A DNA stretch of 64,000 nt from Haliotis cracherodii (lineage: Eukaryota). The DNA lies in NCBI RefSeq assembly GCF_022045235.1, contig NW_027266286.1, positions 71,610,001-71,674,000 on the forward strand, written 5' to 3'. Shown here one piece after another: positions 4,174 to 61,281 of this stretch. The translations under genes were made by a program, and so were the position numbers. The stretch's first letter is position 1. Each line of letters begins with the position of its first letter. The notes below the pieces were generated by a model. It worked only from the letters and a program-made list of their open reading frames with translations, made no database searches and was not told where the DNA came from.

Positions 4174-4838
4174 CTAAGATGTATCCCCAACACTGCATAT
4201 GCTGCAGCCCACAGTCTTCCTTATCCCACCTTGTGAGCTGTGACCTCGACCAAAGGTACCAGTATGGGAGAGATCTCTGTCTGTCATATTCACGGCCTCT
4301 GTATACATAACCTCCACGTGGACACGAGGACAGTCCTTTGTTCTGTATGTTGAGAATGTCTTTATCAAAAACTTGTTGGAGCACGAATCAAGCTTGAGCA
4401 GGTGCATATTACAGAAACTGTCTGCCTCTGATCCTGAACGTGTCAGGACCAAGGTCACGTAGTGAACACGCGTGCGTGTGATTCTGCGTGGGGACCTGCG
4501 TGGTGGCTTGCAGTAGAAGTCAGCAAAGTAAAGTTTTGCTGAATCATCAAAAACCTCACTCAGTTGCACTTTCACTCTCGTGTCTCCAAAAGGCGACTTA
4601 TCTGGCAGTTGTCCATTCGTAAGTGTCACGTTAAAGAAAAGACCCTTCAGTCTCCCATTTATTGGACAGCGTTGGTCTCCGCCATTGTCCTTTAGATAAG
4701 GTTCCATGATGTTATTGTGGTTCTGCCGAATGTCCACGAAATAGGAGGACGGCTTGTTGCGATAGAGGATAGATACATTATCAAAGCTGCCTCCACTGCA
4801 ATGGTCCTCGGCTTTGCGGAGCAGCTTTTTTAGATATT
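4174..4838 (-). CDS. PHYHIPL: PHYHIP-like C-terminal-domain protein, copy 1 (type A), exon 2; exon 1 at ~5609-5642; ~232 aa
   Basis: AG acceptor at 4839-4840, then (E)YLKKLLRKAEDH..LYRNKPSSYF..KDNGGDQRCPINGRLKGLFF..SPFGDTR..LYFADFYC..HYVTLVL..EVMYTE..CSIC; these motifs match the PHYHIP/PHYHIPL C-terminal domain as I recall it; stop at 4174-4176. Confidence 0.85.
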
Positions 4839-5608
4839 CTGATACAGGAAATTTAAAATGAACACCATGATAACATCCGGTGCAGTACTGAAAATTAGAA
4901 ACTTAAGATGAGATAACGTTTGTAATATCAAAACGTCAACGCCATAGAATAATCAGTCTTGATTCCAAAGAGCCATCCCAATGATGTTTCTAGGTTTGCC
5001 GGCACCATACCCGTGCTCGTGGGTTTCACCGAAGTGGTAAACGTCTGAGACCTGCATCACTCCGGGCTTTCCTACCACATAAAGCTGACACGCCGTGATA
5101 TAACTGGAATACTGTTAAAAGCGGCGTTAAACCGAACTCACTCACTCCACAGGGCGTACAAGGAAAAATAGGGATGACAATGATATGCATGTGTCAGTTG
5201 ATTTGTGACTCCAGGTGGAAGCAGGAAGATAGAGCATAAGAAGTGTGAAACATTCTTTGAAAAGCAATCCGTTCAAGCATCATTATATTTGTATTGTAAA
5301 TTATATTTAATGAAATTTGTTTTGTTTAAAATGTTTAAAAACGATCTGCAAATGCTTTTTGAGTAAAGAATTGTGACCTTGACTTTTGTAGCTATCAGTT
5401 AATTATATTCGCATCCAACCAAGATATTCATTAATACNNNNNNNNNNNNNNNNNNNNNNNNNNNNNNNNNNNNNNNNNNNNNNNNNNNNNNNNNNNNNNN
5501 NNNNNNNNNNNNNNNNNNNNNNNNNNNNNNNNNNNNNNNNNNNNNNNNNNNNNNNNNNNNNNNNNNNNNNNNNNNNNNNNNNNNNNNNNNNNNNNNNNNN
5601 NNNNNNNN

Positions 5609-8459: not shown

Positions 8460-9250
8460 TCAATAGTAATCATCAGAATCATAGCTAATACCCATATCAT
8501 CATAATCGTTTGTATATCCAAAAGGATCGTCATAGTCAAAACGAACGTCATCGTCAGAAAGATCGTCATCGTCAAAAAGATCGTCATATTCCACGGGATG
8601 TACATATCTTCTTCCGGGGTCGACTCCGACATTGCAAATCCCACACCCACCAGCTTTTGGTATTCCCCCAACACTTTGCCCTCGTCCATATATCCCTGTA
8701 GAACTGAGGATCCTGTTTGATATGTCTATATCTTCTGTATAGAACACATCAACAAATACTTTGGATTGTTTCAGTGTTGAGTACCCAAAGCTTTGCTTTC
8801 GCAAGTACAAGTTGTTCATGACATTGAGTTTGATCAGGTTCTCTTTACAGAACATATCTGCTTCTGAATCAGCCTTTGTCAGAACCAAGGTAACATAATG
8901 TATTCGGTTGGGTGAAGGTTTGCAAAAGAAATCGGCAAAGTACAAATTTGATGAGCCATGAAACACCTCACTCAGCGGAACTTTAACTCTTGTGTTTCCA
9001 AATGGCGATTTTTCTGGTATAACACCTCCCTGTAGTGTAACCCCAAAAAAGAGTCCGCCAAGTCTGTTATTGATTGGACAGCGTGGATCACCTCCATTGT
9101 CTTTGAGTCTCGGTTTCATGATGCCATTGTACTTATTTTTGATATCCTGAAAGTAGCTGTTGGGTTTATTCCGGTACAGGTAATATACACCTTCAGATAT
9201 GCCACTCTGGCTGTGATCATTAGCTTTATCTAACAGCTTCTGAAGATATT
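8460..9250 (-). CDS. PHYHIPL: PHYHIP-like protein, copy 2 (type B, Asp/Tyr-rich tail), exon 2; ~274 aa with exon 1
   Basis: Acceptor ttttacag|AATAT at 9251-9252; intact domain with CGIC, then an acidic tail; frame matches exon 1. Confidence 0.88.
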
Positions 9251-9510
9251 CTGTAAAATGAATATGTAAATTATGTTTTAGTATAGATATCATGGAAGCC
9301 ATGTTAACATCGACGAAAAGTATTTCAAATTATTGTGACTCTCACAGATGAGAAATTATGTCCCATTCAATACCGACTGCATATCTGTCCGCCGCATTAT
9401 ACAACAGAAATACAAAATATGTCAGACGAGATCGTTTGAGCGATTCCTTTAGCACACAAAATACTATGAAAATACTGTAATAGTCATCTTGGACATAAGT
9501 ATATCCATAC

Positions 9511-12856: not shown

Positions 12857-13584
12857 GATGCACGTCAATAGATGCTGGCATCTTTTGTTTCCTTATAACT
12901 ATGATGTACGTCAATAGATGCTGGCATCTTTTGTTTCCTTATAACTATGATGCACGTCAATAGATGCTGGCATCTTTTGTTTCCTTATAACTATGATGTA
13001 CGTCAATAGATGCTGGCATCTTTTGTTTCCTTATAACTATGATGCACGTCAATAGATGCTGGCATCTTTTGTTTCCTTATAACTATGATGCACGTCAATA
13101 GATGCTGGCATCTTTTGTTTCCTTATAACTATGATGTACGTCAATAGATGCTGGCATCTTTTGTTTCCTTATAACTATGATGCACGTCAATAGATGCTGG
13201 CATCTTTTGTTTCCTTATAACTATGATGCACGTCAATAGATGCTGGCATCTTTTGTTTCCTTATAACTATGATGTACGTCAATAGATGCTGGCATCTTTT
13301 GTTTCCTTATAACTATGATGTACGTCAATAGATGCTGGCATCTTTTGTTTCCTTATAACTATGATGCACGTCAATAGATGCTGGCATCTTTTGTTTCCTT
13401 ATAACTATGATGTACGTCAATAGATGCTGGCATCTTTTGTTTCCTTATAACTATGATGCACGTCAATAGATGCTGGCATCTTTTGTTTCCTTATAACTAT
13501 GATGCACGTCAATAGATGCTGGCATCTTTTGTTTCCTTATAACTATGATGCACGTCAATAGATGCTGGCATCTTTTGTTTCCTT
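12857..13584. repeat. 46-bp minisatellite, ~16 units (~2 units at 23920-24003)
   Basis: Unit gatgyacgtcaatagatgctggcatcttttgtttccttataactat. Confidence 0.95.
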
Positions 13585-13616
13585 TTGTAGTATCTATGCT
13601 TCCTCCTTCAGCTGTA
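13581..13616 (-). pseudogene. Decayed exon 1 (TAEGGSIDTTK) of a lost paralog; duplicate at ~24001-24035
   Basis: GCTGAAGGAGGAAGCATAGAT is identical to copy 5 exon 1, but ATG is ACA and the GT donor is lost. Confidence 0.6.
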
Positions 13617-14751: not shown

Positions 14752-15395
14752 TTTCTAGAAGGAACCCTCGAGATTACATCCTGCCAGTAGCTTGGGAAGC
14801 AGCTCATCCAAAGATGTATCACCAAACATTGCATATGCTGCAGCCCACAGTCTTCCTTATTCCACCTGGTGTGCTGTGGCCTTGACCAATGATACCAGTA
14901 AGGGAGAGAAACCTGTGTGTCATGTTCACGGCCTCTGTATACATGACCTCCACGTGAACTGCAGGACGGTCCAGTGTCTCGTATGTGCCAGATAAGTATG
15001 TCTTTCGCAAATAAATGTTGGTGTACGAATCAAGCTTCAGCAGGTGTGTCTGACAGAAACTGTCTGCCTGTGATCCTGAATGTGTCAGAACCAAGGTGAA
15101 TCATCAAAAACCTCGCTCAGTGGCATTTTCACTCTCGTGTCTCCAAAAGGCGACACATCTGGCAGATGTCCATTCCTAAGTGTAACGTTAAAGAAGAGAC
15201 CCTTCAGTCTCCCATTTATTGGACAGCGTTGGTCTCCGCCATTGTCCTTCAGATAAGGTTCCATGATGTTATTGTGGTTCTGCCGAATGTCATCAAAATA
15301 GGAGGATGGCTTGTTGCGATAGAGGGTAGATACATTATCAAAGCTGCCTTCACTGCAGTGGTCCTCGGCTTTGCGGAGCAGCTTTTTCAGATATT
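14752..15395 (-). pseudogene. PHYHIP-like copy 3, chimeric pseudogene, exon 2
   Basis: 61-bp deletion relative to copy 5 at 15099/15100 removes LYFADFYC..HY and shifts frame; a 1-bp insertion near 14825 gives CNVW*; acceptor at 15396-15397. Confidence 0.85.
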
Positions 15396-16129
15396 CTGAA
15401 ATAGGAAATTTAAAATGAACACCATGATAACATCCGGTGGAGTACTGAAAATTAGAAACTTAAGATGAGATGACGTTTGTAATATCAAAACGTCAACGCC
15501 ATAGAATAATCAGTCTCGATTCCATAGGGCCATCCCAATGATGTTTCTAGGTTTGTCGGCACCATACCCGTGCTCGTGGGTTTCACCGAAGTGGTAAACG
15601 TCTGAGACCTGCATCACTTCGGGCTTTACCTGCTTTACAACTCTGTGTGAAAGTCTCATCACGTAGTAAACTTTCGAAAGAGTGCATGCTCTGTAATAGG
15701 CATGCTTTTGACTATGACAGCCACGTTATTAAGGCAAAATAGGGATGACAATGATATGCATGTGTCAGTTGATTTGTGACTCCAGGTGTTCGCGAAGCAG
15801 GACGATAAAGCATAAGAAGTGTTTAACATTCTTTGAAAAGCAATCCGTTCAAGCATCATTATATTTGTATTGTAAATTATATTTAATGAATTTGTTTTGT
15901 TTAAAATGTTTAAAAAAGATCTACAAATGAAAGCTTTGCTTTTTGAGTAAAGAATTGTGACCTTGACTTTTGTAGCTNNNNNNNNNNNNNNNNNNNNNNN
16001 NNNNNNNNNNNNNNNNNNNNNNNNNNNNNNNNNNNNNNNNNNNNNNNNNNNNNNNNNNNNNNNNNNNNNNNNNNNNNNNNNNNNNNNNNNNNNNNNNNNN
16101 NNNNNNNNNNNNNNNNNNNNNNNNNNNNN

Positions 16130-16163
16130 CTTTCTCGACATTTGTACTCCCTCCTTCAGCCAT
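16130..16163 (-). pseudogene. Exon 1 of copy 3 (MAEGGSTNVEK+G)
   Basis: 34-nt exon identical in layout to the other copies; donor falls in an N gap. Confidence 0.7.
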
Positions 16164-16300
16164 GACAGATAGGATAGTTGTTGTGCTACTGCTTTTCCAA
16201 GCTCTTCTTCACAAAGTGACTTGAGAAGTAATGTAGGTCGATATATACCTCAATACGCCTGTGTGTAAACAAGATACATTTGTCCCCTACATCAATGCTG

Positions 16301-16333
16301 ATCCTAGAACTGATACTTTCCCTTTCGATTTCG
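16301..16333 (-). promoter_or_regulatory. ISRE/IRF element, copy 3 promoter
   Basis: actttccctttcgatttcg at 16315-16333. Confidence 0.65.
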
Positions 16334-18948: not shown

Positions 18949-19766
18949 TCAATTGAAGTATGAATAGTAATCATCAAAATCATAGCTAATACCCATATCA
19001 TCATAATAGTCCTCAAAAGGATTGTTTGTATATCCAAAAGGATCGTCATAGTCAAAACGAACGTCATCGTCAAAACGATGGGCATCGTCAAAAAGATCGT
19101 CATATTCCACGGGATGTACATATCTTCTTCCGGGGTCGACTCCGACATTGCAAATCCCACACCCACCAGCTTTTCGTATTCCCCCAACACTTTGCCCTCG
19201 TCCATATATCCCTGTAGAACCGAGGATCCTGTTTGATATGTCTATATCTTCTGTATAGAACACATCAACAAATACTTTGGATCGTTTCAGTGTTGAGTAC
19301 CCTAAGCTTTGCTTTTGCAAGTACAAGTTGTTCATGACATTGAGTTTGATCAGGTTCTCTTTACAGAACATATCTGCTTCTGAATCAGCCTTTGTCAGAA
19401 CCAAGGTAACATAATGTATTCGGTTGCGTGAAGGTTTGCAAAAGAAATCGGCAAAGTACAAATTTGATGAGCCATGAAACACCTCACTCAGCGGAACTTT
19501 AACTCTTGTGTTTCCAAATGGCGATTTATCTGGTATAACACCTCCCTGTAGTGTAACCCCAAAAAAGAGTCCGCCAAGTCTGCTATTGATTGGACAGCGT
19601 GGATCACCTCCATTGTCTTTGAGTCTCTTTTTCATGATGCCATTGTAGTTATTTTTGATATCCTGAAAGTAGCTGTTGGGTTTATTCCGGTACAGGTAAT
19701 ATACATCTTCAGATGTGCCACTCTGGCTGTGATCATTAGCTTTATCTAACAGCTTCTGAAGATATT
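18949..19766 (-). CDS. PHYHIPL: PHYHIP-like protein, copy 4 (type B), exon 2; ~283 aa with exon 1
   Basis: Acceptor at 19767-19768; intact ORF; domain ~98% identical to copy 2 at nucleotide level; longer acidic tail. Confidence 0.88.
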
Positions 19767-20029
19767 CTGTAAAATGAATATGTAAATTATGTTTTAGTAT
19801 AGATATCATGGAAGCCATGTTAACATCGACGAAAAGTATTTCAAATTATTGTGACTCTCACAGATGAGAAATTATATCCCTTTCAATACCGACTGCATAT
19901 CTGTCCGCCGCATTATACAACAGAAATACAAAATATGTCAGACGAGGTAGTTTGAGGGATTTCCCCTTTTAGCACACAATTACTATGAAAATACTGTAAT
20001 AGTCATCTTGGACAGAAGTATATCCATAC

Positions 20030-20063
20030 CTTTTCCTGCATCTGTGCTTCCTCCTACAGCCAT
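20030..20063 (-). CDS. Exon 1 of copy 4 (MAVGGSTDAGK+G)
   Basis: ATG at 20061-20063; GT donor at 20028-20029, phase 1. Confidence 0.8.
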
Positions 20064-20176
20064 GATTGCAATATGGTTGCCGATACTCGTTCTGTGCATA
20101 TGTTGGCTCTATAAATAGAAACAGAGTATTGTTGTGCAATAGGTCAGATAATGCTCGAGCGTATACAATGACAAGG

Positions 20177-20207
20177 TTCCTTGAATTTCTACTTTCATTT
20201 TCACTTC
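20177..20207 (-). promoter_or_regulatory. GAS plus ISRE-like composite, copy 4 promoter
   Basis: TTCCTTGAA at 20177-20185; actttcattttcacttc at 20191-20207. Confidence 0.65.
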
Positions 20208-22562: not shown

Positions 22563-22690
22563 TGGGCTATATCCTGACTTTAAAAGATTTTGGTCGGGTC
22601 TTCATAACCTCTAATTTTCCTGGAAGGTTCTCTTAATCTATACTTAGAACGCGAAATCGAAAAGGGAAGTAACAGTTCAAGGATCAAGGA
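22563..22690 (+). promoter_or_regulatory. Inverted copy of the type A promoter module (GAS plus ISRE-like)
   Basis: Reverse complement of ~5775-5900; TTCCTGGAA at 22617-22625; CGAAATCGAAAAGGGAAGT at 22652-22670. Confidence 0.6.
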
Positions 22691-25419: not shown

Positions 25420-26123
25420 CTAGAAGGAATCCTCGCGATTAAATGCTGCCAGTAGCTTGCGAAGCAGCTCATTCAAAGATGTATCCCCAACATTGCATAT
25501 ACTGCAGCCCACAGTCTTCCTTATTCCACCTCGTGTGCTGTGGCCTTGACCAAAGGTATCAGTAGGGGCCAGAACCCTGTGTGTCATGTTCACGGCCTCT
25601 GTATACATGACCTCCACGTGAACTGCAGGACGGTCCAGTGTCTCGTATGTGCCAGATAAGTATGTTTTTTTTCGCAAATAAATGTTGGTGTACGAATCAA
25701 GCTTCAGCAGGTGTGTCTTACAGAAACTGTCTGCCTCCGATCCTGAATGTGTCAGAACCAAGGTGACGTAGTGAACACGCCTGCGTGAGGGCTTGCAATA
25801 GAAGTCAGCAAAATACAGATTTGCTGAATCATCAAAAACCTCGCTCAGTGGCATTTTTACTCTCGTGTCTCCAAAAGGCGACATATCTGGCAGATGTCCA
25901 TTCCTAAGTGTCACGTTAAAGAAAAGACCCTTCAGTCTCCCATTTATTGGACAGCGTTGGTCTCCGCCATTGTCCTTCAGATAAGGTTCCATGATGTTAT
26001 TGTGGTTCTGCCGAATGTCCACGAAATAGGAGGATGGCTTGTTGCGATAGAGGGTAGACACAGTATCAATACTGCCCCCACTGCAGGGGTCCTCAGCTTT
26101 GCGGAGCAGCTTTCTCAGATATT
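25420..26123 (-). CDS. PHYHIPL: PHYHIP-like protein, copy 5 (type A), exon 2; ~245 aa with exon 1
   Basis: Acceptor attgcag|AATAT at 26124-26125; intact domain ending CSICNVGDTSLNELLRKLLAAFNREDSF*. Confidence 0.88.
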
Positions 26124-26580
26124 CTGCAATAGGAAATGTACAAGCTGCAGCATGGTTACATCCGGTGCAGTACTGACAATTATAAACGTAGTATGAGATG
26201 AAAAATAGGCACAACAGTGATGAATGGATGAATGGATCACTGAAAGTCAGTGATAGCACGGCGAAAGGGGTAAACATGTAGATATTAGACAAGACAGCAT
26301 GATACGTTCTTAAATGAGCAGTCCATTGAACTGTCAATTTATTTTGCTTAATAAATTATATACAATTTATTCGTTTTGTGGACTAAACATAGGGAAGTCA
26401 TATTTGAATAAAAATCTTCAAATGAAAGTGTTGCTTTAAGTTAAGATTTGTTATGTCTTGTGGCCTGTAAGTCTAAGGTTAATTATATGTCGAATCCCCC
26501 TAGATATTTATGAATACCAAGTGAAACACGAATAACAACTTTCAAGACATGTTTTTTAAAAACTTTTTCCCTTGTAGACT

Positions 26581-27109: not shown

Positions 27110-30100
27110 CAAAGTTGGACAACATCTAACAAAACAAGGCATGTTAATAACAGCTGGACAGCATCTTACCAAACAAGGCATGTTAATAACAGCTGGACAA
27201 CATGTAACCAAGCAAGGCATGTTAATAATAGTTTGCAAACATCTAAGCAAGCAAGCCATGTTAATAAAAGTTTGCCAACATCAAACCAAACAAGGCATGT
27301 TGATGACAGCTGGACAACATCTAGTCAAACAAGGCATGTAAATAACAACTGGAGAGCATCTTACCAAACAAGGCATGTTAATAACAGCTGAACAACATCT
27401 AACAAAACAAGGCATGTTAATAACAGCTGGACAGCATCTTACCAAATAAGGCATGTTAATGACAGCTGGACAACATCTAACCAAACAAGGCATGTTAATG
27501 ACATCTGAACAACATCTAACCAACCAAGGCATGTTAATAACAGCTGGACAACATCTAGTCAAACAAGGCATGTTTACAACAGTTGGACAACAGCTAAGCA
27601 CACAAGGCATGTTAATAACAGTTGGACAACATCTAAGCAAGCAAGGCATGTTAATAACAGTTGGACAACATCTAACCAAACAAGGCATATTAATAACAGT
27701 TGGACAACATCTAACCAAACAAGGCATGTTAATAACAGTTGGACAACATCTAAGCAAGCAAGGCATGTTAACAACAGTTGGACAACATCTAAGCAAGCAA
27801 GGCATATTAATAACAGTTGGACAACATCTAACCAAACAAGGCATATTAATAACAGTTGGACAACATCTAAGCAAGCAAGGCATGTTAATAACAGTTGGAC
27901 AACATCTAACCAAACAAGGCATGTTAATAACAGTTGGACAACATCTAAGCAAGCAAGGCATGTTAATAACAGTTGGACAACATCTAACCAAACAAGGCAT
28001 ATTAATAACAGTTGGACAACATCTAGTCAAACAAGGCATGTTAATAACAGTTTGCTAACATGTAACCAAACAAGGCATGTATATTACAGTTGAACAACAT
28101 CTAACCAAACAAGGCATGTTACTGACAGTTGGACAATATCTAATCAAAAAAGGCATGTTTATAACAGCTGGACAATATCTAACCAAGCAAGGCATGTTAA
28201 TAACCGTTTGACAATATCTAAGGAAGCAAGGCATGTGAATAACAGCTGGACAACATCTAACCAAACAAGGCATGTTAACAACATTTGGACAACATCTAAC
28301 CAGACAAGGCATGTTAATGACAGTTGGACAACATCTAAGCAAGCAAGGCATGTTAATAACAGTTTGCTAACATGTAACCAAACAAGGCATGTTGATGACA
28401 GGTGGACAACATCTAAGCAAGCAAGGAATGTAAATAACAGTTTGCCAACATCTAGTCAAACAAGGCATGTTAATAACAGGTGGACAACATCTCACCAAAC
28501 AAGGCATCTTGATGACAGTTGGACAACATCTAACCAAACAAGGCATGTTAATAATAGCTGGACAACATCTAGTCAAACAAGGCATGTTTATAACAGCTGG
28601 ACAACATCTAACCAAACAAGACATGTTAATAACAGCTGGATAACACCTAGTCAAACAAGGGATGTTAATAACAGGTGGACAACATCTAACCAAACAAGGC
28701 ATGTGAATAACAGTTTGCCAACATCTAACCAAACAAGGCATGTGAATAACTGCTGGACAACATCTAGTCAAACAAGGCATGTTAATATCAGTTTGCCAAC
28801 ATCTAGGCAGGCAAGACATGTTAATAACAGTTTGCCAACATCAAAGCAAGCAAGGCATGTTAATAACAGCTGGACAATATCTAACCAAACAAGGCATGTC
28901 AATGACAGTTAGACAACATCTAACCCAACAAGGCATGTTAATAACAGTTGGACAATATATAACCAAACAAGGCATATTAATAACAGCTGGACAGCATCTA
29001 ACCAATCAAGGACATGTTGATGACAGTTTCCAACATCTAAGCAAGCAAGGCATGTTAATAACAGTTTGTTAACATCTAACCAAACAAGACATGTTGATGA
29101 CAGGTGGACGACATCTAACCAAGCAAGGAATGTTAAGAACAGTTTGCAAACATCTAAGCAAGCAAGGCATGTTAATAACAGCTGGACAACATCTAAGCAA
29201 GCAAGACATGTTAATAACAGCTGGATAACACCTAGTCAAACAAGGGATGTTAATAACAGGTGGACAACATCTAACCAAACAAGGCATGTTAATAACAGTT
29301 TGCCAACATCTAACCAAAACAAGGCATGATAATAACAGCTGGACAACATCTAGTCAAACAAGGCATGTTTATAACAGTTTGCCAACATCTAACCAAACAA
29401 GGCATGTTAATAACAGGTGGACAACATCTAACCAAACAAGGCATGTTAATAAAAGCTGGACAACATCTAACCAAACAAGGCATGTTAATAACAGCTGGAC
29501 AATATCTAACCAAACAAGGCATGTAAATAACAGCTGGACAACATCTAAGCAAGCAAGGCATAGTAATAACATTTGGAGAACATCTAACCAAACAAGGCAT
29601 GCTAATAACAGCTGGACAACATCTAAGCAAACAAGGCATGTTAATAACAGCTGGACAACATCTAAGCAAACAAGGCATGTTAATAACAGCTGGACAACAT
29701 CTAACCAAACAAGGCATGTTAATAACAGTTTGCCAACATCTAACCAAACAAGGCATGCTAATAACAGCTGGACAACATCTAACCAAACAAGGCATGCTAA
29801 TAACAGCTGGACAACATCTAAGCAAACAAGGCATGTTAATAACAGCTGGACAACATCTATCCAAACAAGGCATGTTAATAACAGTTGGACAACATCTAAG
29901 CAAGCAAGGCATGTTAATAACAGTTGGACAACATCTAACCAGACAAGGCATATTAATAACAGTTGGACAACATCCAGTCAAACAAGGCATGTTAATAACA
30001 GTTTGCTAACATTTAGCCAAACAAGGCATGTATATTACAGTTGGACAACATCTAATCAAAGAAGGCATGTTAATAACAGCTGGACAATATCTAACCAAAC

Positions 30101-30965
30101 AAGGCATGTTACTGACAGTTGGACAATATCTAATCAAAAAAAGGCATGTTAATAACAGCTGGACAATATCTAACCAAGCAAGGCATGTTAATAACCGTTT
30201 GACAATATCTAAGGAAGCAAGGCATGTGAATAACAGCTGGACAACATCTAACCAAACAAGGCATGTTAACAACATTTGGACAACATCTAACCAGACAAGG
30301 CATGTTAATGACAGTTGGACAACATCTAAGCAAGCAAGGCATGTTAATAACAGTTTGCTAACATGTAACCAAACAAGGCATGTTGATGACAGGTGGACAA
30401 CATCTAAGCAAGCAAGGAATGTAAATAACAGTTTGCCAACATCTAGTCAAACAAGGCATGTTAATAACAGGTGGACAACATCTCACCAAACAAGGCATCT
30501 TGATGACAGTTGGACAACATCTAACCAAACAAGGCATGGTAATAACAGCTGGACAACATCTAGTCAAACAAGGCATGTTAATAACATTTGGAGAACATCT
30601 AACCAAACAAGGCATGTTAATAACATTTGGAGAACATCTAACCAAACAAGGCATGTTAATAACAGCTGGACAACATCTAACCAAACAAGGCATGTTAATA
30701 ACAGTTGGACAACATCTAACCAAACAAGGCATGTTAATAACAGCTGGACAACATCTAACCAAACAAGGCATGTTAATAACAGTTTGCCAACATTTAGCCA
30801 AAGTAGGCATGTGTATTACAGTTGGACAACATCTGATCTAAGAGGGCAATGTTTATGACACTTTGACAACGTCAAACCAACCAAAGCATGTTTATTTTAG
30901 TTGGACAACATTTAACAAAGGAAAGTATTTGATGACAGTTTGACAACATCTAACCAACATCTGAC
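27110..30965. repeat. 39-bp satellite, ~100 units, in intron 1 of copy 5
   Basis: Consensus aacaaggcatgttaataacagctggacaacatctaacca. Confidence 0.97.
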
Positions 30966-33657: not shown

Positions 33658-34295
33658 TCACCAGACATTGCATATGTCACAATTTTCAGACTTGCTTATT
33701 CCTCCTGGCGTGCTGTGACCTTGACCAATGGTGGGAGTAGAGGTGAGATGTCGATGGGACATGTCAATACTCTCTGTATACATGACCTCCACCTGCACTT
33801 CAGATTGGTCCAGTGTCATGTATGTGTCAGAAAATTCATCTTTCCACAAATAATTGTTGTTGTACGGATCGAGCTGGATGAGGTGTCGCCTGCAGAAACG
33901 GTCTGCATCTGATCCCGCATCTGTAAGTACCAAGGTCACGTAATGGATGTGTTTGCGTGAAGGCTTGCAGTAGAAATCAGCAAAGTACAGGTTTGCTGAA
34001 TCATCAAAGAGTTCATCAAGTGGTACTATCACTCTGGTGTTTCCGAACGGCGACATGTCTGGAAGATCACCCCTGTAGAGCGTCACCCCGAAGAAGAGAC
34101 CATTAAGTCTCCCGTTTATTGGACAACGCGGATCCCCTCCATCGTCCTTAACATACGGTACCATGATGTTACCGTGGTGTCTACGAATGTTTTTGAAGTA
34201 GGAGGATGGCTTGTTTCGGTAGAGATCAGACACCTGGTCATAGTCGTCTCCATCACAGTGTTCTTCGGCTTTCGGTAGCAGCTTTCGCAAATAGG
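33658..34295 (-). CDS. PHYHIPL: PHYHIP-like protein, copy 6, exon 2; ~221 aa with exon 1
   Basis: Acceptor ccttgcag|CCTAT at 34296-34297; intact domain ending CDICNVW*. Confidence 0.88.
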
Positions 34296-35579
34296 CTGCA
34301 AGGAGAAGACCAGTTTGTAACTTGCATGATGATTGACCCTTTATATATATACATGTATATATATTTTATTTTATTGTTTTCATCTGTTTGTGGAGAAAAC
34401 TATTAAAGACATTGTAAATGAAACTGAATGATATGGCAACGTTGGCTGAAGATGTGGTTACCTTCTTTTTTTTTATAAAATATTTCAATTCAGTGGACAT
34501 AATTGTAACATTGACACATGAGGTATATACGTGTAGCAATTCATGGTATCTGTATACTTGATCAGATATGTGTAAATATATATATTGGATTGACTGATGA
34601 AGAATATTAAGTAGATCTGTCAAACTTATTAATCTTCTATTTTCGTTGCGATAAACTTTTCTATTTTACATACATCTTTCAATATTTTTAAGAAAAATGG
34701 AAAGCATATGGAGTTTTCTTAACGCTTGACTGGGGAATGTATTTTTTGGCAAGAAGAATTATATGGTTGAAAAGATATGTAGAATGGTAATATGAATATC
34801 ATTTGCAAGTTTCTAGTTTAGGTACACTTCTAATCCTAACCATAATTCCTTTACAAAAGTGCATTCTATATACTGGTATAAGTTTTCAGAATCAGAGCTA
34901 CAAAAGGCTCATATATATATATATCTGTGTAGCCCTGTTAGATATGTTAGATATTCAATAGACATGTGAAAAAGTAACGCGTAAAAAATTATCTTTTTTA
35001 AACAAATAAATGTATTCTTATTACACTGGAAAAAAATCACACCCGATTTATTGTCTTAATTATGAGTACGCTAATCACACAAAACTAGAAATCGAACCAA
35101 AATTTTAAGTTAGACGAGTAAACGATTCATCCCCTCGGCTAACCCAGCACACTTTGGTTCAAGAAATGAGAAAATTGTGATAAAATCCCCGCTGGACTAC
35201 CGCCAAGCCTTTACCGTTATTCTTAACAATTACAGGTACTTGGTATATATCCAGACTCAGCCAGCCTGGACTAAACAATAACCCTCGAACTGAATTATTT
35301 ACTTTGACGAGCAAACGTTTCAGCCACTAGGCTAGCCAACTGAACTTTGGTTCGGGAATAAGAAACTGTTGATTAAAACCCGCTAGACTGTCGCAAAGCC
35401 TTGACCGTTTGTTGATAATTATAAGTATAAGGGTGTGCACATATAGCAAGAGTCTACAACGCAATTGGATAAATTTACTATGTATTTTTTCCTATAGATT
35501 GTGATGCACAAATTAGCTATATATCTCTGTCAACACTGTTTCTCCGACGTATATCAGGCAGCTTGAGCCTAACGACATG

Positions 35580-35606
35580 TTCCACGAATATGCAACGTTC
35601 CAGGAA
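35580..35606. promoter_or_regulatory. Tandem GAS pair in intron 1 of copy 6
   Basis: TTCCACGAA-N9-TTCCAGGAA; a third site, TTCCAGGAA, at 35870-35878. Confidence 0.6.
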
Positions 35607-35654
35607 ACGGAGCACTTTCTGACTAGGCCATTGTTGGCAACCCTATATTCAGGC

Positions 35655-35709
35655 AGTGAGGTGAGGTGAGGTGACACGTGAGGTGAGCTGAGGTGAGGTG
35701 AGGTGAGGC

Positions 35710-35775
<66 letters not shown>
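35655..35775. repeat. (GAGGT)n and (GA)n microsatellites
   Basis: Read directly from the sequence. Confidence 0.9.
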
Positions 35776-35777
<2 letters not shown>

Positions 35778-36138
35778 TGAATGTTCTGGAAGGACAAAGT
35801 AGAAAGCAGTATCACGTATTCCTGCTGCACTATGTCACGACCCACGTTATCAATGCGGGTATTTTTGTGTTCCAGGAAGTAATATTCTCCAAATTGGCAG
35901 TTGTTAGCCTTCGTTTTGACGCTTAGTTTTGTGTAAATTACTTTTTTCATATTCTTCAATTCCAATTTATACTGACTAAGAGGTTACAGCTGTTATCACA
36001 AATGAAACTCTTGGCTGTGTGTGTCAATTGTCAATTGATTGAAAGGCCTATACTGTTCATGAATAACGATGAGCAAATACAACCAACAAACGTGTTAGAA
36101 ATTGCGGAAATCAACCACATTGATTATTGTATAACTAC

Positions 36139-36166
36139 CTTTATCCTGGTGCCCTCCTCTGGCCAT
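36139..36166 (-). CDS. Exon 1 of copy 6 (MARGGHQDK+G)
   Basis: ATGGCCAGAGGAGGGCACCAGGATAAAG|GTAGTT; joins exon 2 in frame (G|CC = Ala). Confidence 0.72.
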
Positions 36167-37111: not shown

Positions 37112-37498
37112 GAAAGACAAACCAGTGGTTGAAAAAATGACAAAACGATCCTCGACATGTGGGCAAGATGACACAAAATCAGTTGTTCTCCAGAATCTCC
37201 GTAGGTCATATGTATATCAAAAAGAACAAAGTCAAAAATAACATGACTGAGCTGACATATCTGCCACATTCCATAACTCTCCCAATACGTATAGCTGACA
37301 GTTCAAGTCTGACAAAGAATGCTCCTTACTTTTGCAAAGGTACAACTCAGGGGCCTGTCAAAATACCCATTCGCAACAAGTGACCCAGGGGTAAGAATAC
37401 CATGCAAAGCTCACTGCGTCTCAGTTGTACCGGTTCCTTGAGGGAGTCGCCATCTTTTCAAAACAGTTTTCATTTTGGAACGTGTTACCTTTTTTTGC

Positions 37499-38345
37499 CT
37501 ATGGCACATTCTTCTTCCTAATTCCGCCTGGCGTGGTATGACCTTGACCAAGGGCGCCTGTAAGGGAGAGAACCCTGTATGACATGGCCTCTGTATATAT
37601 GACCTCCAAGTGAACTCCAGATCGGTTCAGTGTTCTGTATGTACCAGTAAAGAATCTTTTTCTCAAAATTTAATACATATTCTCATACGGATTCATTTTG
37701 ATCAAGTTCTTCTAACAAGATTGGTCAGCTATGGGCCAGTCGCTGTCAAAACCTAGTTCATATAATGAATGTGTTTGCGTGACGGCTTGCAGTAGAAAAT
37801 CAGTAAATTATAGAAATGCTGATACATCAGAAACGTCCCTCAGTGATCTTGTCCCTCGGGTTTTCAGCAACCCATGCTTGCCGTTAAAGGCGACTATGCT
37901 TGTCGTAAGTGGTGATTAACGGGATCGGGTGGTCAGCCTCGCTGACTTAGTTGACAAATGTCATCGTATCCCAATTGCGTAGATCGATGCTCATGATGTC
38001 AATCACAGAATTATCTTGTCCAGATGCGATGATTTTAGACCGTCGACATATAGCTGAGTGCGGCGTTAAGCATCAAAATACACAAAAAACCATCATAAAG
38101 GCAGCCTGTCTGGTAGACCACTGTTACACAGGATCGCCCCAAACAGACCCATCAGCTTCCCATTGATTGGACATCGTGTGTCCTTCCACTCTCCACGTGT
38201 GAGGGTCCATGATGCTGCAGCGTCTTCTTCAAATATTTCTGAAGTAAGAGGATGTTTTTTTTGCGATACAGAGCATCTACCCATGTTCCTCCATTTCCTC
38301 CATCGCAGTATTCATCTACTTCATGTAGCAGCTGCCGTAGATATA
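37499..38345 (-). pseudogene. PHYHIP-like copy 7, decayed and interrupted by a SINE
   Basis: Acceptor at 38346-38347; remnants VYLRQLL..LYR..RCPINGKL.GLF..FYCKPSRKHIHY..GQGHTTPGGIRK with stops and frameshifts; SINE at ~37851-38085. Confidence 0.82.
37851..38085 (+). mobile_element. SINE family 1 inside pseudogene copy 7
   Basis: Homology to the other family 1 copies. Confidence 0.8.
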
Positions 38346-38879
38346 CTGCAATAATAATATTTATTTGAAAATTAGGATTTGTTACTTATTGTTTGTTTGT
38401 ATATTGTTTAACGGCATATTCAATAACATTCCAGCTATATGACGACGTCCTGACTGACTGGCGCATACACATCAGCAACGGTCCCCACCGTCGGGGTTAG
38501 ATGAAACAGTCACCAAGCCTGACCACCCGATCTCCTTTTGTCGCCTCACACAAACAGAACAAGTTTGCTGGGAACTACTGTATCCGGAAATCCACATGGT
38601 CGGTCTATTCTATTAGTGAGTGAGTGAGTGATTTTGGTTTAACGCCGCGTTTAACAGTATTCCAGTCCTATCACGGCGTGTCAGCTTAATGTAGGAGGAA
38701 AGCCCGAAGTGATGCAGGTTTCAGACGTTTACCAATTCACGAGCACGGGTATGGTGCTGACAAACCTAGAAACATAATCGGGGCGAACCGGGTTTCGAAC
38801 CCACAATTATAGGTTTCTGGCGTGCTCAAGAGACGCAACTCTGCACAGCGAAGTCAAGTCTTAAAAGACACATCAAAAT

Positions 38880-45736: not shown

Positions 45737-46359
45737 TCAAATTTGAACACAGCATATTTCACAACCAGATGTTTTAGGTATGCCTCCTGAGCTACTGCCT
45801 CTCCCCATCACATCAGTTTCAGTCAGATCCAGACCTTTTATGTTCACTTCATTCGTATAGAACACTTCAACCCACACTTTGTCCTGGCGGAGCGTTTTAT
45901 ACGTGCCCCCTTCCTTCCTCAGAAATACGTTCTGCTTTTTGTCCAGACGAACGAGGTGTTCCCGACAGAAACGATCTGCTTCTGAATCACGCTCTGTCAG
46001 GACCAATGTGACGTAGTGGTTATCACTTTGACCTGACATACAGTAAAAATCCGCGAAGTACAGCCTGGCTGACCTATCAAAGACTCGCTCCAGGGGAACC
46101 TTCACTCTGGTGTCTCCATATGGTGATTTAGTTGGTAGACGACGGTTCCACAGCGTCACCCCGAAGAACACACCTTCATGTTTCCCGTTTATGGGGCAGC
46201 GTGGATCTCCTCCGTTGTCCTTCATTTGTGGTGTCATGATGTTGTTTTGAAGTTGGGTGAAATAGTCGCCGGGTTTATTGCGGTAAAGACCATCCACTTC
46301 GTCGAAATACCTGCTGGAACAATGCTTTTCGGCCTTCTCGAGTAGTGTTTCAAGATAAT
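45737..46359 (-). CDS. PHYHIPL: PHYHIP-like protein, copy 8 (most divergent), exon 2; ~216 aa with exon 1
   Basis: Acceptor ttattgcag|ATTAT at 46360-46361; DYLETLLEKAEKH..LYRNKPGDYF..SPYGDTR..LYFADFYCM..HYVTLVL..EVFYT..CEIC. Confidence 0.88.
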
Positions 46360-47768: not shown

Positions 47769-47796
47769 CTGGTACAGCGCTTGATCCCTCTGCCAT
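47769..47796 (-). CDS. Exon 1 of copy 8 (MAEGSSAVP+G)
   Basis: ATGGCAGAGGGATCAAGCGCTGTACCAG|GTATAT; joins exon 2 in frame (G|AT = Asp). Confidence 0.72.
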
Positions 47797-50700
47797 GTTG
47801 AAAGGTGTAGCTGGTTTAATGCTGATGTCACATGCACGTTTTATCTACCTGCATTAATACGTTGGCACTATAAATACTGTATGACGTGTTGGTGGACCAT
47901 CCAGATTAGTTATACCTAGGCTGTAATTTCGTTGACGTGTTATCTTCTTGAGCATTTATCACATGCATTCTGTGATGACTTCATACTAAGAGTTCTAGGT
48001 CTTGTTCACGTATCAAACAATACATTCAACACCAACGACAGCCTCCGTGGTGTAGTGGATAGAGCGTCTGCCCGGAGAGCGGAAGGTTGGTGGTTAGTTC
48101 CCCGGCCGCGTCATACCAAAAGACTTTAACATACTTGCTTGTTGTTACCCTGCCTGGCGCTCAGCGTTAAGGGGATAAAAAAAAGTACTTGGTCGGCTCT
48201 GAGTCAGTATACTGTGTCTGTGGGGGTATTCATGTTTAAACTACGGCATGGGCTGGCATGAAATACGCTTTAGTCCAAACTAATACAGCAACGTCCCAAT
48301 ATAACCTTGAACGCGACGTTCAACCCCATTTCTCCCCACATTCCACACCAACAAACGTTTTATGTACATACTAAAGGGATTGTTGTTTTGTGTGTAAATA
48401 ACAGATATTTCAGATAAGACATTAACAAGATCTATGTCTAAATGTCTTAAGCATATATCACCGAGTGGATTTCATGCAAGTTTTGTTACCGTCAATATGT
48501 ATAATGCTATTGACAAGAATTCAAATTCAGGGTTATTTAAAACTCTTATCTGCAGTCCACCAGATGACTTGATAAGCCCACGTTTGCAATCGGAAGGTCT
48601 TGCCTCCGTAGTCTTGTGTAATCATGTCCTTTCAATAGTTTCGTTGATTATAGAACAGGCGACGGATCAAGATGTTGCTCCTGTGTTGTCAGTATCATGT
48701 GTGAAATATGTTATACATTGCTCTTTTACAACCTGCGGTGGTTTATTGGGAAACATAAACTTTTGAAGTTACGGATAGGTTGCTTCAACACTACTCCCAA
48801 TTATATATTGCCCATTTCATATTCAAGGCAATGACCATCAATGTACTCATTGGATAAACATTAATTATGTATAACTAGAATTACGTCTGGTTAATAATGG
48901 GCTACTGGTGAATGAGGTCACATCAGAGAGCTGCACCGAAGAGATACCCATCTATTGTAGAGTTGATACTTTCCCACAGTCTGCGCTGTGTTGATGTTGG
49001 TCTCGGAGTTGCTCATTGGTTACCACGAGTTTTCAGGCATTTCTTATCACATCCCCTTATTCAATGGCATTTGCATTAATGGATCGGGTGGTAATGCTCT
49101 TCCCAACAGACTGCACATAAACGCGATGCAGTGGTTGTTCGTATAGCCTCTAATTGGATGACAGCGTGACAGCGATAACCTCTGAACGACCACTGCATCG
49201 AGGTTATGTGATGTGTGTTGAGTCAGCAACCCTGCAGAGTCCTTCGCTTGGATCAAGTCGGCTGGCCTGAAAAGTGAAACAGAAAATATTTGGACATGGA
49301 GGTTTACTCCATCATCACAGAACAGAGGAAGGATCTAGAGTCTTTCTTCCTTACGTTCACACGAGAGGTCACCGTGACTCAATCGATGAATTTGATCCAA
49401 TGGATTTGCAGAGGACTTTTAATGACATTCAATTATTAGTTCAAGATAATAAACCGTCAGCATTTTGTCTCCAAGAGACATATCTTAAGCAAACAGATAC
49501 CTATGACCTACGTCAGTATAATATTTTTCATATTCTTCTCCAGGTGACAAAGCGACTGGAGGCTGTACTTTTTCAGTCAGGCAGGATGTCATTCATAGTA
49601 CTGTACATCTGATAACTAACCTTCAAGCCCTTCATACCCGCTTACTTTGCACATTGCATTCACTTGTCCTGTTTGTATGTTCCACCTTCATCTGCACTTC
49701 GACAATCTGATCTCCAGAATCTATTTGATCAGCTCCTAAAGCCATGCAACATAATGGGCGGTTTAAATATCATGTGCCTAAAATATAAAAGCTGTCAATG
49801 TTATAAAAGTACCCGATCCCATCAAGTTGTTGTCAAGTGAACTCAATGATATTGCTGACCAAACAATTACGAAGTCCTCTGCAAATCCTCATGTTCGTAA
49901 ACCATGGTTTAATAATGAATGCAAACATCCCCAAACATCCTACAATTCATAACATGAATAATGTCAAGGAAAAACTTCGGGCAGAGTACAAATGTAGACT
50001 TAAGAAAATCTGGAGTTCAGAGCTGAACGCTCGCAATAAAGTCAAAGCCACAAATACTTTTGCTGTGCACGTCCTTTCGTATTCTTTTGGTGTTGTTGAT
50101 TGGACGAAACAAGAAATTCAGGGTACTGACACCCTCACACGAAGAATCATGTCCGACAATAGATCCAACCACCCTCGCTCTTCCCTCAATCGCTTATATT
50201 TACCAAGTATGATGGGAGGGGGTGGTTTGATTAATTCGGAGGCGCTTCATTATAGAACTGTTTTGTGCACTTTTGCACACATTTATTTGTCTGATAATCC
50301 TCTTGTGAAGCATGTCAAGGCTCATGATGAATACAAGGTATTTCACAGTTTCCTAAAACGAGCCAAGGACATAATCTCAATGTCGGTGTTGATTTTGTTG
50401 ATGGTTCTGTACTGCTGGACGGTACAGAAATGAGTGTCAACCAAGCGAAGTGCCATATCAAGTCGGCCCAGATTCAGTTTTTCAAGTAGAGGCTTTCTGA
50501 ACGACCACTACATCGAGTTTATGTGCAGTGTGTTGTGAAGATCAGCAATCCTGCAGAGTCCTCCACTTGGATTAACTTGTCTGGCCTGAAAAGTGAAGCA
50601 GAAGGCTTTCTGTTTGCTGCTCAGGACCAGTCACTTCCCACTCGAAACCGTCAATGTGTGATTTTGCATCAAAATGTAGATTATGTAATGAATTGAATGG

Positions 50701-50880: not shown

Positions 50881-53014
50881 TACTAAACCAAATTAAAAAC
50901 TTCACAATCCTAAAATTTTAACATTTTGACCAGTTATCATTGTTGGCCCTTATTGTGTATTTAAACAGTAATGGCCACGTATTGTCTTCAGATAACACCC
51001 GTTTTTGTGCAGGTGAATCGATCAAAATCATGTGCACAGCACAAAAGTGGCAAAAGTGGTTTTTCACTTGCAACTGGTCACGTAGCCATAATACCGCACG
51101 TGTTTTCAGCCATACCTGCTAGCAGTCATTAACAAAAAAAAGAAAAACACAAGAAAACAAAAGTCTTTACGGCCATTTGTCATGCCACGCCTTTCAAATG
51201 TGCAACGTGAACGTGCCATCGGCATGTTGCAAACGGGAACGTCCGTAGCTGAAGTCGCAAGGACGATGGGTTGTAGTCGACGGACTGTTTATGATTTACA
51301 GACGCGTCTACAGCAAACGGGTACCACCGCTGATCGCCCTCGGCCAGGTCGACCACGTGTGACGTCACATGCAGAGGATCGTCAGATTGTCTTACGTCAA
51401 CTCCGTAACCGATTTTTGACGGCTACATCAACCAGAAATGAACTGTTTAGGGGTAGACTGAGTGCGCAAACTGTTCGAAACCGTCTGAGAACTGCTCACC
51501 TTCAAGCACGACGGCCATACTGCGGGCCGATTCTGACTCCATTGCACAGACGTCAACGTCAATTGTGGGCACAGTGGCACTTATGATGGATTCAGAGATA
51601 TTGGAATCAAGTCGTATTCAGTGATGAATCCCAATTTAAAGGGGAAGTGTACACGCAAAAATCACTTTCTTTCTTTTTCTAAACAAAACGCAATTTTAGA
51701 ATTAGTTAGTATCTGTGTTTGAAAATATACACTCATTTTTTTTCACAGTGAAAGTAGGAAGCTCACAATAGTGTGAAAGTGATATGCCGTTATGAGGCCT
51801 TCGTTTTACGAGCGAAAAAGGCCTGAGTTATCCCCCTTAGATTATGACGTAATTGGTGCCAATTCAACTGGGTCCCTGTCTATTCTCAACGCAAAAGATA
51901 TCAAGGACCAGTTTGCGGTAAAACAACATGGTCTACGACACACTCCGGCGCAGTGGTGTCTCAGCATAACACAATTCTGGCTGGCATCTGAGATGCTAGA
52001 ATCACAAAACTGTACCTACCCCACGTGAAGCGGCTCTAACAAAGCATGATGACGTCATAATGTTTATCAATTGGCACCAATGACGTCATATTGCAAGGGG
52101 CATAAGCCATGGTGTTTTTGTTATGGAAATAGAACACTTGGTAAATGTGAAAAATATGAATCGTTTTAGTGCAAAAAATATGTTTATTAAATATGATGTT
52201 TTTATATTTTTGTCTATGACACTTCTATGTTAACACTTTTAATGTGGAAAAAGTACAAGAAAAAATGGTTCATTTCCGTGTGAACTTGCCCTTTAATCAT
52301 CAATTTGCTGATGATAGGGCGAGGGTGTGGAGGCGCCGTCATGAACGTTACGCCCAGTGTTGTGTACAGGAAGTTGACAGATTTTGAGGCGGAAGTGTCA
52401 TGATGTGGGGTGCTTTCTGTGGCAATGCACGTTCCAGGCTTCTTGTCATCCGTGGCAACCTCAACGCTACTGCTTACCGCGACCAGGTACTGGCACCAGA
52501 ACTTCTGCCTTTTATAGCAGCACATGGACCCGGTTTGATCTTCCAACACGACAATGCCAAACCACACACAGCAATTGTGACAAGGAATTTCCTTCAGAAT
52601 GCGGGAGTCAACGTCATGGACTGGCCGTCAAGGTCTCCCGACCTCAATCCCATCGAACACGTCTGTTATGCACTTGGCAGAAGTCTGCGCACTGTCCAGA
52701 ACCAACCACAGAATTTGCAAGATCTTGGCACCATTTTGCAGCAGCAATGGTGTCGTCTTCCCAAAAATGTGTTCACAAGCATCACAAGGTCCATGCGGAG
52801 GCGTTGTGTGGCACGCTACTAAACTTGTGATTTAAACTGTTGATGTTATTACCGAATACCGTAGGTGCTTGGAACAAATTATGGTTACCACCGTTAATTT
52901 AAATCCTTCTTTGGACATTAATGATTATAAAATACCTTCTCTGATACATTTGTCCGTTGTATATCATATATGGGATTACTTTTAAAAATGTGAAGTTTTT
53001 AATTGGACTCAGTA
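50881..53014 (+). mobile_element. Tc1/mariner DNA transposon, near full length
   Basis: TIRs tact..caattaaaaacttcaca; transposase 51182-52822 with HTH, FSDES, QHDNA and SPDLNPIEH, carrying stops. Confidence 0.88.
51640..52292. mobile_element. Non-autonomous TIR element with TTAA TSD (Kolobok/piggyBac-type MITE)
   Basis: TTAA at 51636-51639 and 52293-52296; TIRs aggggaagtgtacacg / cgtgtgaacttgccct. Confidence 0.8.
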
Positions 53015-58573: not shown

Positions 58574-61281
58574 CGGCAGCCCAGAGCACTTTGGTCAAAC
58601 GAACAAGGTACCAATATCCGAACACAGGAACATTTACTGTGTAACCCAACATATTCATATATGGATGTCTGCCGGGGAGCCCCTGCTGCGTGTGGCCCCT
58701 GGCCCCCCAAAAGAAGGGGCCATTCAAGGGCTGGATCAAACATTGGAGGTACCACATGAAAGTAAGTGTAAATGAACTGGTACATCTCACAGAGTACAGA
58801 ATGGGCCACGCCAGACAAATCTTCCTCTGCAAAAGTCCTGCCAGACACCCCCAAAGAGGGTCCCCAAAGAGGGTCCCCAAATTTGGGCTGGGTTAAACAT
58901 TGGAGGTACCACATGAAATCAACATAAAATGAACTATTTCACTCTACTAAGAATAAAAAACCCATTGCCAGACAAATCGTCTGCTGCAAAAGGCCCGCCA
59001 GACACCCCCAAATGTTGACCCTTAATGCACTCAGTGAACACAGACGAATGCAGTCAGAGACCATCCTCGGAGTGGCAGGCCACGCGTAACCAATAATCGA
59101 CAAGACAACTGGATTCGAAGAGCACACCTACAAAATCGATTCTATCCAGCAACAGTGACTGCAAGAAGCATCCCTGGCCTTCGACGATTATCTTCACAAA
59201 CCGTACATCTCCGCCTCAGATGTGCAGGGATTGTCTTCATTGTGTCATGGAAGAAGATCGGTTCTGGGGCGGCAGCGTTTTGGTATCGGGTCAGATTACA
59301 GCAAGACAGAGGACCCGTTTGATAGTGGTAGAGGGAAATCTCAATGGACAGCGCTACCGCGACGAGATCATCGGACCTGTTGTTCTACCGTTTTGGAGTC
59401 GTCATGGCCCAGGCATTACCTTTCAACATGACAACGCCCGGCCTCATATTGCTCGACTTGTTCAGGATCTCTTCAACAAAAACAACGTGAATGTCATCCC
59501 CTGGCCGGCTCACTCCCCTGATCTATCAGCAATCAAGGACATGTGGGATGAGATGGATCGGGGCCTTCGACGTCAACCACGTGTTCCACAGACACTCCTG
59601 GAACTTCGAAACATGCTCCAGCAGATATGGACAGATATCCCACAGAACTTTGTGCGACGCCTGGTCCATTCCATGAGACGAAGATGTGTTGCTTGCATCG
59701 CAGCCAGAGGCGGTCACACTCGCTATTGATTTGTAAATTGACATTTTGGCGTGTTCATGTTTTTTCAATGAAATCACGCATTTTCCGAAGTCAGTATGAC
59801 AAATTAAAACAATTTGAACACTTACAGGAGTCTTTTATCTGTTGCAAGCCGAAATTGTTTCAGATTTGGTAAAAACATAACTTTGCATTAAATCTTATTC
59901 AATGTCACAGGATCTTTTGTTGTTCAGTATATAAAAATCATGGCACATAGCATCATATGCCCATCTGGCTTGTAGGAATCCATAGCCAAGCTATCAGGCT
60001 GTAGCTTTGAGGACTTCATAGCTGATCAGATATATATTCACAAGATTCAGATTCATGCCTTTTTCATTACATTTCAACGATAGGCCTAATCTATGATATC
60101 AATACTAGTATTCAAAGACCTGATTTTATAAATACGTGATTTTAATCTCAATAAAATCCTTCCATCTTTAAGAACAAAACATAAATTTGACCATCTGTTG
60201 ACTCTCAGAGCTGATGTCCAATGTTTCATTATGCACACTGGGATTACAGAGGGTCAACTGTGTGGGGTGGGGTGAGGGTGTGTCTAGCGGTCTTTATGCA
60301 GAAGAGGATTTGTCTGGCAATGGGTATTTTGTAATGAGTAGAGTGTAATAGTTCATTTTATGTTGGTTCCATGTGATACCTCCAATGTTTAAGCCTTATA
60401 CAGAGGAAGATTTGTCTGGTGTGGCCCATTCTGTACTCTGTGATATGAACCTGTTCATTCAAACGTACCTTAATGTGGTACAATCGATATATATTCCACA
60501 CCAATTTTACCCGTGTATACCTGAAGGGTCAACTTTTTGTGGGTGTCTGGCGGGCCTTATGCAGAAGATGATTTGTCTGGCAATGGGTATTGTGCAATAA
60601 GTAGAGTGCAATTGTTCATTTTATGTTGGTTTCATGTGGTACCTCCAATGTTTAACCCAGCCGAAATTTTGGGACCCTCTCTGGGGGGTCTGGCGGACCT
60701 TATGCAGAGGAAAATTTGTCAGGTATGGGCCGTGTTGTACTCAGTAACATGTACCTGTTCACCTAAACTTACTTTCATCTGGTACTTTGAATGTATACTC
60801 TAGTCAAATTTTACCAGAGTGTTCACTGAGTGCATTAAGGGTCAACATTTGGGGGTGTCTGGCGGGCCTTTTGCAGCAGACGATTTGTCTGGCAATGGGT
60901 TTTTTATTCTTAGTAGAGTGAAATAGTTCATTTTATGTTGATTTCATGTGGTACCTCCAATGTTTAACCCAGCCCAAATTTGGGGACCCTCTTTGGGGGT
61001 GTCTGGCAGGACTTTTGCAGAGGAAGATTTGTCTGGCGTGGCCCATTCTGCACTCTGTGAGATGTACCAGTTCATTTACACTTACTTTCATGTGGTACCT
61101 CCAATGTTTGATCCAGCCCTTGAACGGCCCCTTCTTTTGGGGGGGGGGGGGGCCAGGGGCCAGACGCAGCAGGGGCTCCCCGGCAGACATCCATATATGA
61201 ATATGTTGGGTTACACAGTAAATGTTCCTGTGTTCGGATATTGGTACCTTGTTCGTTTGACCAAAGTGCTCTGGGCTGCCG
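58574..61281. repeat. ~465-bp inverted repeat (58574-59041 and 60819-61281), with diverged tandem units at 60250-60830
   Basis: The arms are near-perfect reverse complements; ORF translations on opposite strands are nearly identical. Confidence 0.9.
59042..59930 (+). mobile_element. Internally deleted Tc1/mariner transposon
   Basis: DHPRSGRPRVT; ORF 59220-59729 with GGSVLV..FQHDNARPH..WPAHSPDLSAI..GGHTRY. Confidence 0.85.

Follow-up and report, generated by a model that had tools for sequence, protein, structure and literature searches.

A tandem cluster of stand-alone PHYHIP_C genes in the abalone Haliotis cracherodii with a predicted divergent ADP-ribosyltransferase fold

Gene structure of the focal locus

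Does a short gene in the abalone Haliotis cracherodii encode an enzyme that uses nicotinamide adenine dinucleotide (NAD)? The gene lies at 45737-46359 of a 64,000-nt window of contig NW_027266286.1 (the window is the whole stretch analyzed, and all coordinates are window positions). From the order of motifs in its product, the original prediction proposed an ADP-ribosyltransferase (ART) fold of the R-S-E type with a zinc site. At the level of prediction, the ART-fold guess stands, and it applies to vertebrate PHYHIP as well. The interval is the exact second exon of a two-exon gene on the minus strand, with the AG acceptor ending at 46360, and it encodes a whole PHYHIP_C domain. The parts of the gene are listed below; papers are cited by PMC number, here and throughout, for a portion of their text.

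47769..47796, minus strand: coding part of exon 1, nine codons plus one base, with a GT donor after it
45737..46359, minus strand: exon 2, whole PHYHIP_C domain (PF19281; Pfam E 2e-34), predicted divergent ART fold
46280..46282, minus strand: Arg27, predicted strand-1 NAD-binding residue (conserved in 269/270; register from structural alignments)
46160..46174, minus strand: G63-V-F65-F66-G67, predicted strand 2 (E62-67); Phe65 putatively at the PARP Tyr/first Ser position, by motif analogy to PMC7955679 Table 1
45866..45868, minus strand: Glu165, predicted strand-5 catalytic residue (263/274; register from structural alignments)
46016..46042, minus strand: an inserted beta-hairpin (E98-108/E111-123) bearing Cys107 and His115, the candidate first and second zinc ligands (272/274 and 273/274; Y106-Y116 coupling)
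45752..45763, minus strand: C200-x-x-C203 at the C-terminus, the candidate third and fourth zinc ligands (265/266 and 266/267)

The annotated product has 216 residues, nine of them from exon 1; residue numbers here are counted from exon 2, and those of the full protein are higher by nine. PHYHIP_C is the sole Pfam family found in it and scores 119.4 bits against a gathering cut-off of 27. The N-terminal fibronectin type III domain typical of vertebrate PHYHIP and PHYHIPL is absent from the product, and no signal peptide was seen in it by eye. Contigs of 151 to 741 bases cover the gene in 4/4 sequencing runs, the types of which are guesses; as to expression, the run records name no RNA source.

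Conservation and distribution of the family

Conservation was scored on the 274 domains, from 295 homologs searched, that covered at least 170 profile positions, partial ones being dropped. The motifs named in the original prediction (LYR, G[LV]FF[GN]V, SP[FY]G, V[ED]V[MF]YT, F[YF]C, HY, and the terminal CxxC) each occur in all six intact copies in the window. Judged from the alignment, these motifs are family-wide and not due to chance, because Arg27 (269/270), Glu165 (263/274), and Gly82 (274/274) are retained across the family. Phe65 is kept in 262/274 domains, and K47, S79, R85, and D104 are other near-invariant polar residues. Position 67, the residue after FF, is Ser in 102/274 domains overall: in 12/12 vertebrate sequences, as the original prediction stated for PHYHIP, in 90/237 others, and in 0/25 stand-alone abalone sequences, all 25 of which have Gly or Asn.

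The named homologs are all from animals (molluscs, annelids, a brachiopod, nematodes, and vertebrates), and 914 clusters at 50% identity match the family profile at E ≤ 0.001. PF19281 was the only Pfam family found across all 105 members, with no ART family and no PF00644. None of 15 pattern matches in viral contigs was a homolog. Among 118 pattern matches in GTDB contigs, a single one held a PHYHIP_C gene (L001:1418-2085); we read this candidate prokaryotic homolog as likely eukaryotic contamination, given its interrupted frame and its position on a 3.8-kb contig of a Bacillales metagenome-assembled genome. In a 55-row tree, the six intact window copies fall within an abalone-only clade of 27 rows (support, 100/99), and a 7-row limpet clade and longer abalone paralogs are separate from it. 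Within this sample of rows, the expansion is therefore specific to the abalone lineage.

Predicted fold and catalytic register

Structures were predicted for the abalone domain and for a fish PHYHIP domain, which is predicted to fold like it, and both were aligned to 48,161 chains. The structural matches listed comprise 43 and 50 rows for the two models and, as the original prediction anticipated, are all of ART type, with no non-ART chain among them. The predicted structure contains the six-strand split beta-sheet core in ART order. Z scores are low and the root-mean-square deviation (rmsd) is 3 to 6.7 Å, a resemblance that is weak but exclusive among the matches listed. If 1,000 of the 48,161 chains are assumed to be ARTs, the chance of 43/43 is about 1e-73, although the chains are not independent. 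For the abalone model, Foldseek ranks OspC3 first (E 0.094). DarT and Tpt1 are among the rows with the highest Z scores, and the longest structural alignments are with CopC and OspC3 (136 to 142 residues).

Foldseek against the PDB and viral models returned nothing at E ≤ 0.001, the best viral row being an uncharacterized pithovirus protein (E 0.038). A sequence search of the PDB gave 0 matches for the protein and only 3 chance matches for the profile (E 1.1 to 2.1). Comparisons by hhalign with DUF3626, DUF952, DarT, and DUF3841 stayed below 2% probability, with templates of 6 to 10 sequences that are too shallow for this to be evidence of absence. On the strength of the two models, we consider it very probable that the PHYHIP_C domain has an ART fold.

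The catalytic register was obtained by counting residues inward from the ends of the alignment ranges, assuming no gaps, in 14 rows chosen for their ready residue numbers. We took PARP1 H862, PARP10 H887, PARP15 H537, and pertussis R9 to be strand-1 positions. Numbers for PARP4 are from PMC10711553, those for yeast and mouse Tpt1, PARP10 I987, and PARP15 L637 from PMC10415124, PARP1 E988 from PMC10789625, and pertussis E129 from PMC9079181. The strand-1 His or Arg lands on the conserved Arg27 in 13/14 rows, and the strand-5 residue lands on Glu165 exactly in 8/14 and within one residue in 12/14, the PARP rows in this count not being mutually independent. For mouse TRPT1, the offset is five residues with either model.

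Two predictions and their alignments support the ART fold and the strand roles of Arg and Glu, but the R-S-E label fails. On strand 2, the motif F-F-x has Phe at its first place in 262/274 domains and lacks S-x-S, the register there resting on motif analogy. Because G63-V-F65-F66-G67 parallels the S-x-S and Y-F-A/S motifs listed in PMC7955679 Table 1, Phe65 would by analogy stand at the triad position, and residue 67, which varies, would come third. Two positions ahead of Glu165 there is Glu in 7/274 domains and Gln in 6/274 (13/274 together), which departs from the E/Q-x-E turn motif. On these two counts we rejected both the R-S-E label and the E-x-E strand originally proposed. Strand 1 reads R-N-K and strand 2 carries Phe, in place of the H-G-S/T and Tyr of PARPs. 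By this motif analogy, R-F-E is the most fitting label for the family, a hybrid that belongs to neither classical clade.

Candidate zinc site

The four candidate ligands (Cys107, His115, Cys200, and Cys203) occur together in 263/274 domains; of the 11 exceptions, 8 are gapped in the C-terminal columns. The zinc claim of the original prediction is plausible given the conservation of these four residues, but its spacing differs, as Cys and His are separated by 7 to 15 residues and not by two. Among the residue couplings (effective depth 194, which is shallow), D52-K196 ranked second and G50-M108 third, and Y106-Y116, K196-C203, D48-E165, Y116-E165, and D48-Y116 were also listed. Such couplings would place Cys107 and His115 across from each other, with the tail drawn to the same loop, and D48-E165 and Y116-E165 suggest that the candidate zinc region lies beside Glu165. 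The tail has a predicted local distance difference test score of 90 to 93 in the abalone model. A Cys3-His zinc site is, on the pattern of conservation, probable.

Proposed mechanism and alternative explanations

We favor, with some reserve, a model in which stand-alone PHYHIP_C is a highly diverged ART-fold NAD+-cleaving enzyme with an Arg-Phe-Glu triad and a probable Cys3-His zinc brace. NAD+ cleavage of any kind appears likely, and a plain mono-transferase or NADase is the form to which we lean. Arg27 on strand 1 would grip NAD+, with Phe65 on strand 2 as a wall of the nicotinamide pocket; Glu165 on strand 5 would stabilize the oxocarbenium state, so that a single ADP-ribose would move either to an acceptor or to water. 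Cys107 and His115 lie in an insert of about 50 residues (98-146) and would bind zinc jointly with the C-terminal CxxC; the zinc would hold both the tail and the K47-D48...D52 loop next to Glu, forming the likely acceptor site. As originally noted for the type B genes, two copies (8460..9257 and 18949..19773) have Asp in place of Glu, and they may be weakened or retuned because the Glu-to-Asp change inactivates pertussis S1 (PMC9079181).

Several features weigh against catalysis. Strand 1 lacks G-T/S, there is no stable Ser and no E/Q-x-E, the Asp of two window copies is the change that inactivates pertussis S1 (PMC9079181), and vertebrate PHYHIP is described through its binding partners (PMC7953787). 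These would suit an ART-fold pseudo-enzyme, or an NAD- or nucleotide-binding scaffold, that acts through protein binding like TASOR or PARP13. However, Arg and Glu are kept from nematodes to vertebrates together with the near-invariant K47, S79, R85, and D104, whereas the listed human pseudo-ARTs lost the Arg/Glu positions (PMC7955679 Table 1), and we regard a pseudo-enzyme as unlikely. An ART-fold enzyme with catalytic Cys107, His115, and Asp104, yielding an OspC/CopC-like two-step product or acting on nucleic acids like DarT/Tpt1, seems rather improbable to us; the OspC3, CopC, DarT, and Tpt1 rows described above are consistent with it, and the D48-E165, Y116-E165, and D48-Y116 couplings suggest a conserved cluster at Glu. 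Least probable is a superficial beta-sandwich resemblance of a domain with its own fold and an unrelated function, to which the low Z scores, the rmsd range, the non-significant Foldseek values, and the blank profile comparisons point, but no non-ART chain stands among the rows listed and the most conserved Arg and Glu coincide with the two catalytic positions.

Tandem cluster, selection, and a possible defense role

Eight PHYHIP-family copies share one strand of the window; six of them are intact, one is broken, and one is decayed. Those other than the focal gene are as follows.

33658..34295, minus strand: intact paralog, Glu type, exon 2, spliced to an exon 1 ending at 36139
25420..26124, minus strand: intact paralog, Glu type, exon 2
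18949..19773, minus strand: intact paralog, Asp type, Asp/Tyr-rich tail
8460..9257, minus strand: intact paralog, Asp type, Asp/Tyr-rich tail; recent duplicate of the copy at 18949
4174..4845, minus strand: intact paralog, Glu type, exon 2
14800..15402, minus strand: broken paralog, about 19 codons lost and frame change near 15097; Cys/His hairpin motif gone
37430..38350, minus strand: decayed paralog with stops, frame changes, and insertions

The five other intact copies score 102.8 to 132.9 bits for PF19281 (cut-off, 27). For the copy at 33658, the splice joint 34295-36139 was seen in 4/4 runs from three studies (run types again being guesses), and its spliced contigs have a short first exon as in the focal gene.

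Across 12 of the 15 paralog pairs, the ratio of non-synonymous to synonymous substitution rates is 0.17 to 0.39, and the older paralogs are, by this measure, under purifying selection. The Asp-type copies (8622-9248 versus 19138-19764) show 13 coding differences in 12 codons, 13/13 of them non-synonymous (p ~0.03 under neutrality, post hoc for one pair picked from 15); these two copies may be alleles assembled in tandem. One run's contig is 13 bases off the focal gene, 11 of these in changed codons, but 6 off the copy at 33658, four of these synonymous. Positive selection in the cluster is only hinted at by such differences.

A defense role of the abalone cluster can be suggested only tentatively, and the analysis gave no direct support for the analogy to antiviral PARPs drawn in the original prediction. 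Tandem birth and death, the separate abalone and limpet expansions, and the 13/13 non-synonymous differences point toward it; purifying selection on the older paralogs and the high conservation of the vertebrate members, which are brain and testis genes (PMC7953787), argue against it. A search of the open full-text literature found no abalone or mollusc infection data naming the family, and the absence of the family name from supplements of oyster herpesvirus studies is uninformative either way.

Positions 5610-14664 and 16131-25081 represent a recent tandem duplication some 10.4 kb in size. The blocks are 94.5 to 97.9% identical and the N gaps fall at corresponding positions; the duplication may be genuine, or two haplotypes may have been assembled one after the other. 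The tails of the Asp-type copies (8460-8620 and 18949-19135) are of low complexity and rich in Asp, Tyr, and Phe, and an unnamed homolog (P0119) carries a similar Asp-rich repeat tail. A 39-bp minisatellite at 27113-30957 (98.5 copies, long open frames on both strands) appears to lie within the intron of the copy at 25420, the likely exon 1 of which is at 31642. Tc1/mariner-like transposase remnants occur at 51092-52819 and 59097-59726 (DDE_3 match to the latter, E 5e-10), and a fragment at 49807-50430 resembles a reverse-transcriptase element by eye.

Novelty and significance

The family already has a name; no published statement of its fold class was found. Open full-text searches found no link between PHYHIP and ARTs, which subscription papers, survey supplements, ECOD, CATH/TED, or InterPro may hold. 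No such statement occurs in the portions searched of PMC10789625, PMC7955679, PMC10450202, PMC9503650, and PMC12522546 and its preprint, and PHYHIP is absent, within the same portions, from the 2021 human ART domain list (PMC7955679 Table 1) and from the main text of the 2023 Foldseek survey (PMC10450202). Mollusc papers mentioning "phytanoyl" do not mention the family.

On the modeled fold, the PHYHIP family is likely an overlooked group of animal NAD-using enzymes. The vertebrate brain proteins PHYHIP and PHYHIPL are conserved, their biochemical function is stated as unknown, and a predicted ART fold that retains Arg and Glu makes that function directly testable. If active, the family would add a new class of animal ADP-ribosylation writers, with a triad and a probable zinc site unlike those of PARPs or ecto-ARTs. 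We advance with considerable doubt the broadest proposal, in which PHYHIP_C is an unrecognized, catalytically active, zinc-braced R-F-E ART clade across bilaterians, PHYHIP and PHYHIPL are new ADP-ribose writers or NADases missing from the PARP and ecto-ART lists, and the abalone and limpet expansions are fast-turning NAD-dependent defense effectors. The stand-alone, repeatedly duplicated abalone copies offer small natural versions for biochemistry and may point to a molluscan defense role.

Comparison with known systems

All key residues are common to the abalone domain and 12 vertebrate PHYHIP/PHYHIPL sequences, but the abalone genes are two-exon stand-alone domains without the fibronectin type III part and have Gly or Asn, not Ser, after FF. 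PHYHIP and PHYHIPL are described as brain and testis genes, and the function of PHYHIPL is stated as unknown (PMC7953787). The ARTC or R-S-E enzymes (cholera, pertussis, scabin, and ecto-ARTs) have a strand-1 Arg and a strand-5 Glu in common with the abalone domain, which differs from them by having no S-T-S and no E/Q-x-E turn motif. Minimal or atypical ARTs, namely Tpt1/KptA, CC0527 (which we take to be a DUF952 member), DarT, and OspC3/CopC/SopF, account for the structural rows that rank highest or align over the greatest length with both models. With the ARTD/PARP enzymes (H-Y-E), the domain shares the strand order, the PARP His aligning with Arg27 and the PARP Glu with Glu165, and the strand-2 F-F-[S/A/G] of PHYHIP_C resembles the PARP Y-F-A/S (PMC7955679 Table 1).

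The nearest non-animal look-alikes of the domain are the pithovirus protein A0A481ZDK8 (E 0.038) and DUF5846 and DUF5863 clusters (scores, 0.86 to 0.89); these giant-virus proteins may be further unrecognized ART folds. The top language-model neighbor of the abalone protein is a DUF3626 protein (L002:1480-2565), in which His, Tyr-Gly, and Glu motifs follow an ART-like order by eye and for which the profile comparison with PHYHIP_C was blank. Among animal proteins, TASOR, TEX15, NEURL4, and LRRC9 likewise combine a remote ART fold with a poorly known protein, and PHYHIP differs from TASOR, TEX15, and LRRC9 in retaining both the basic strand-1 residue and the Glu.
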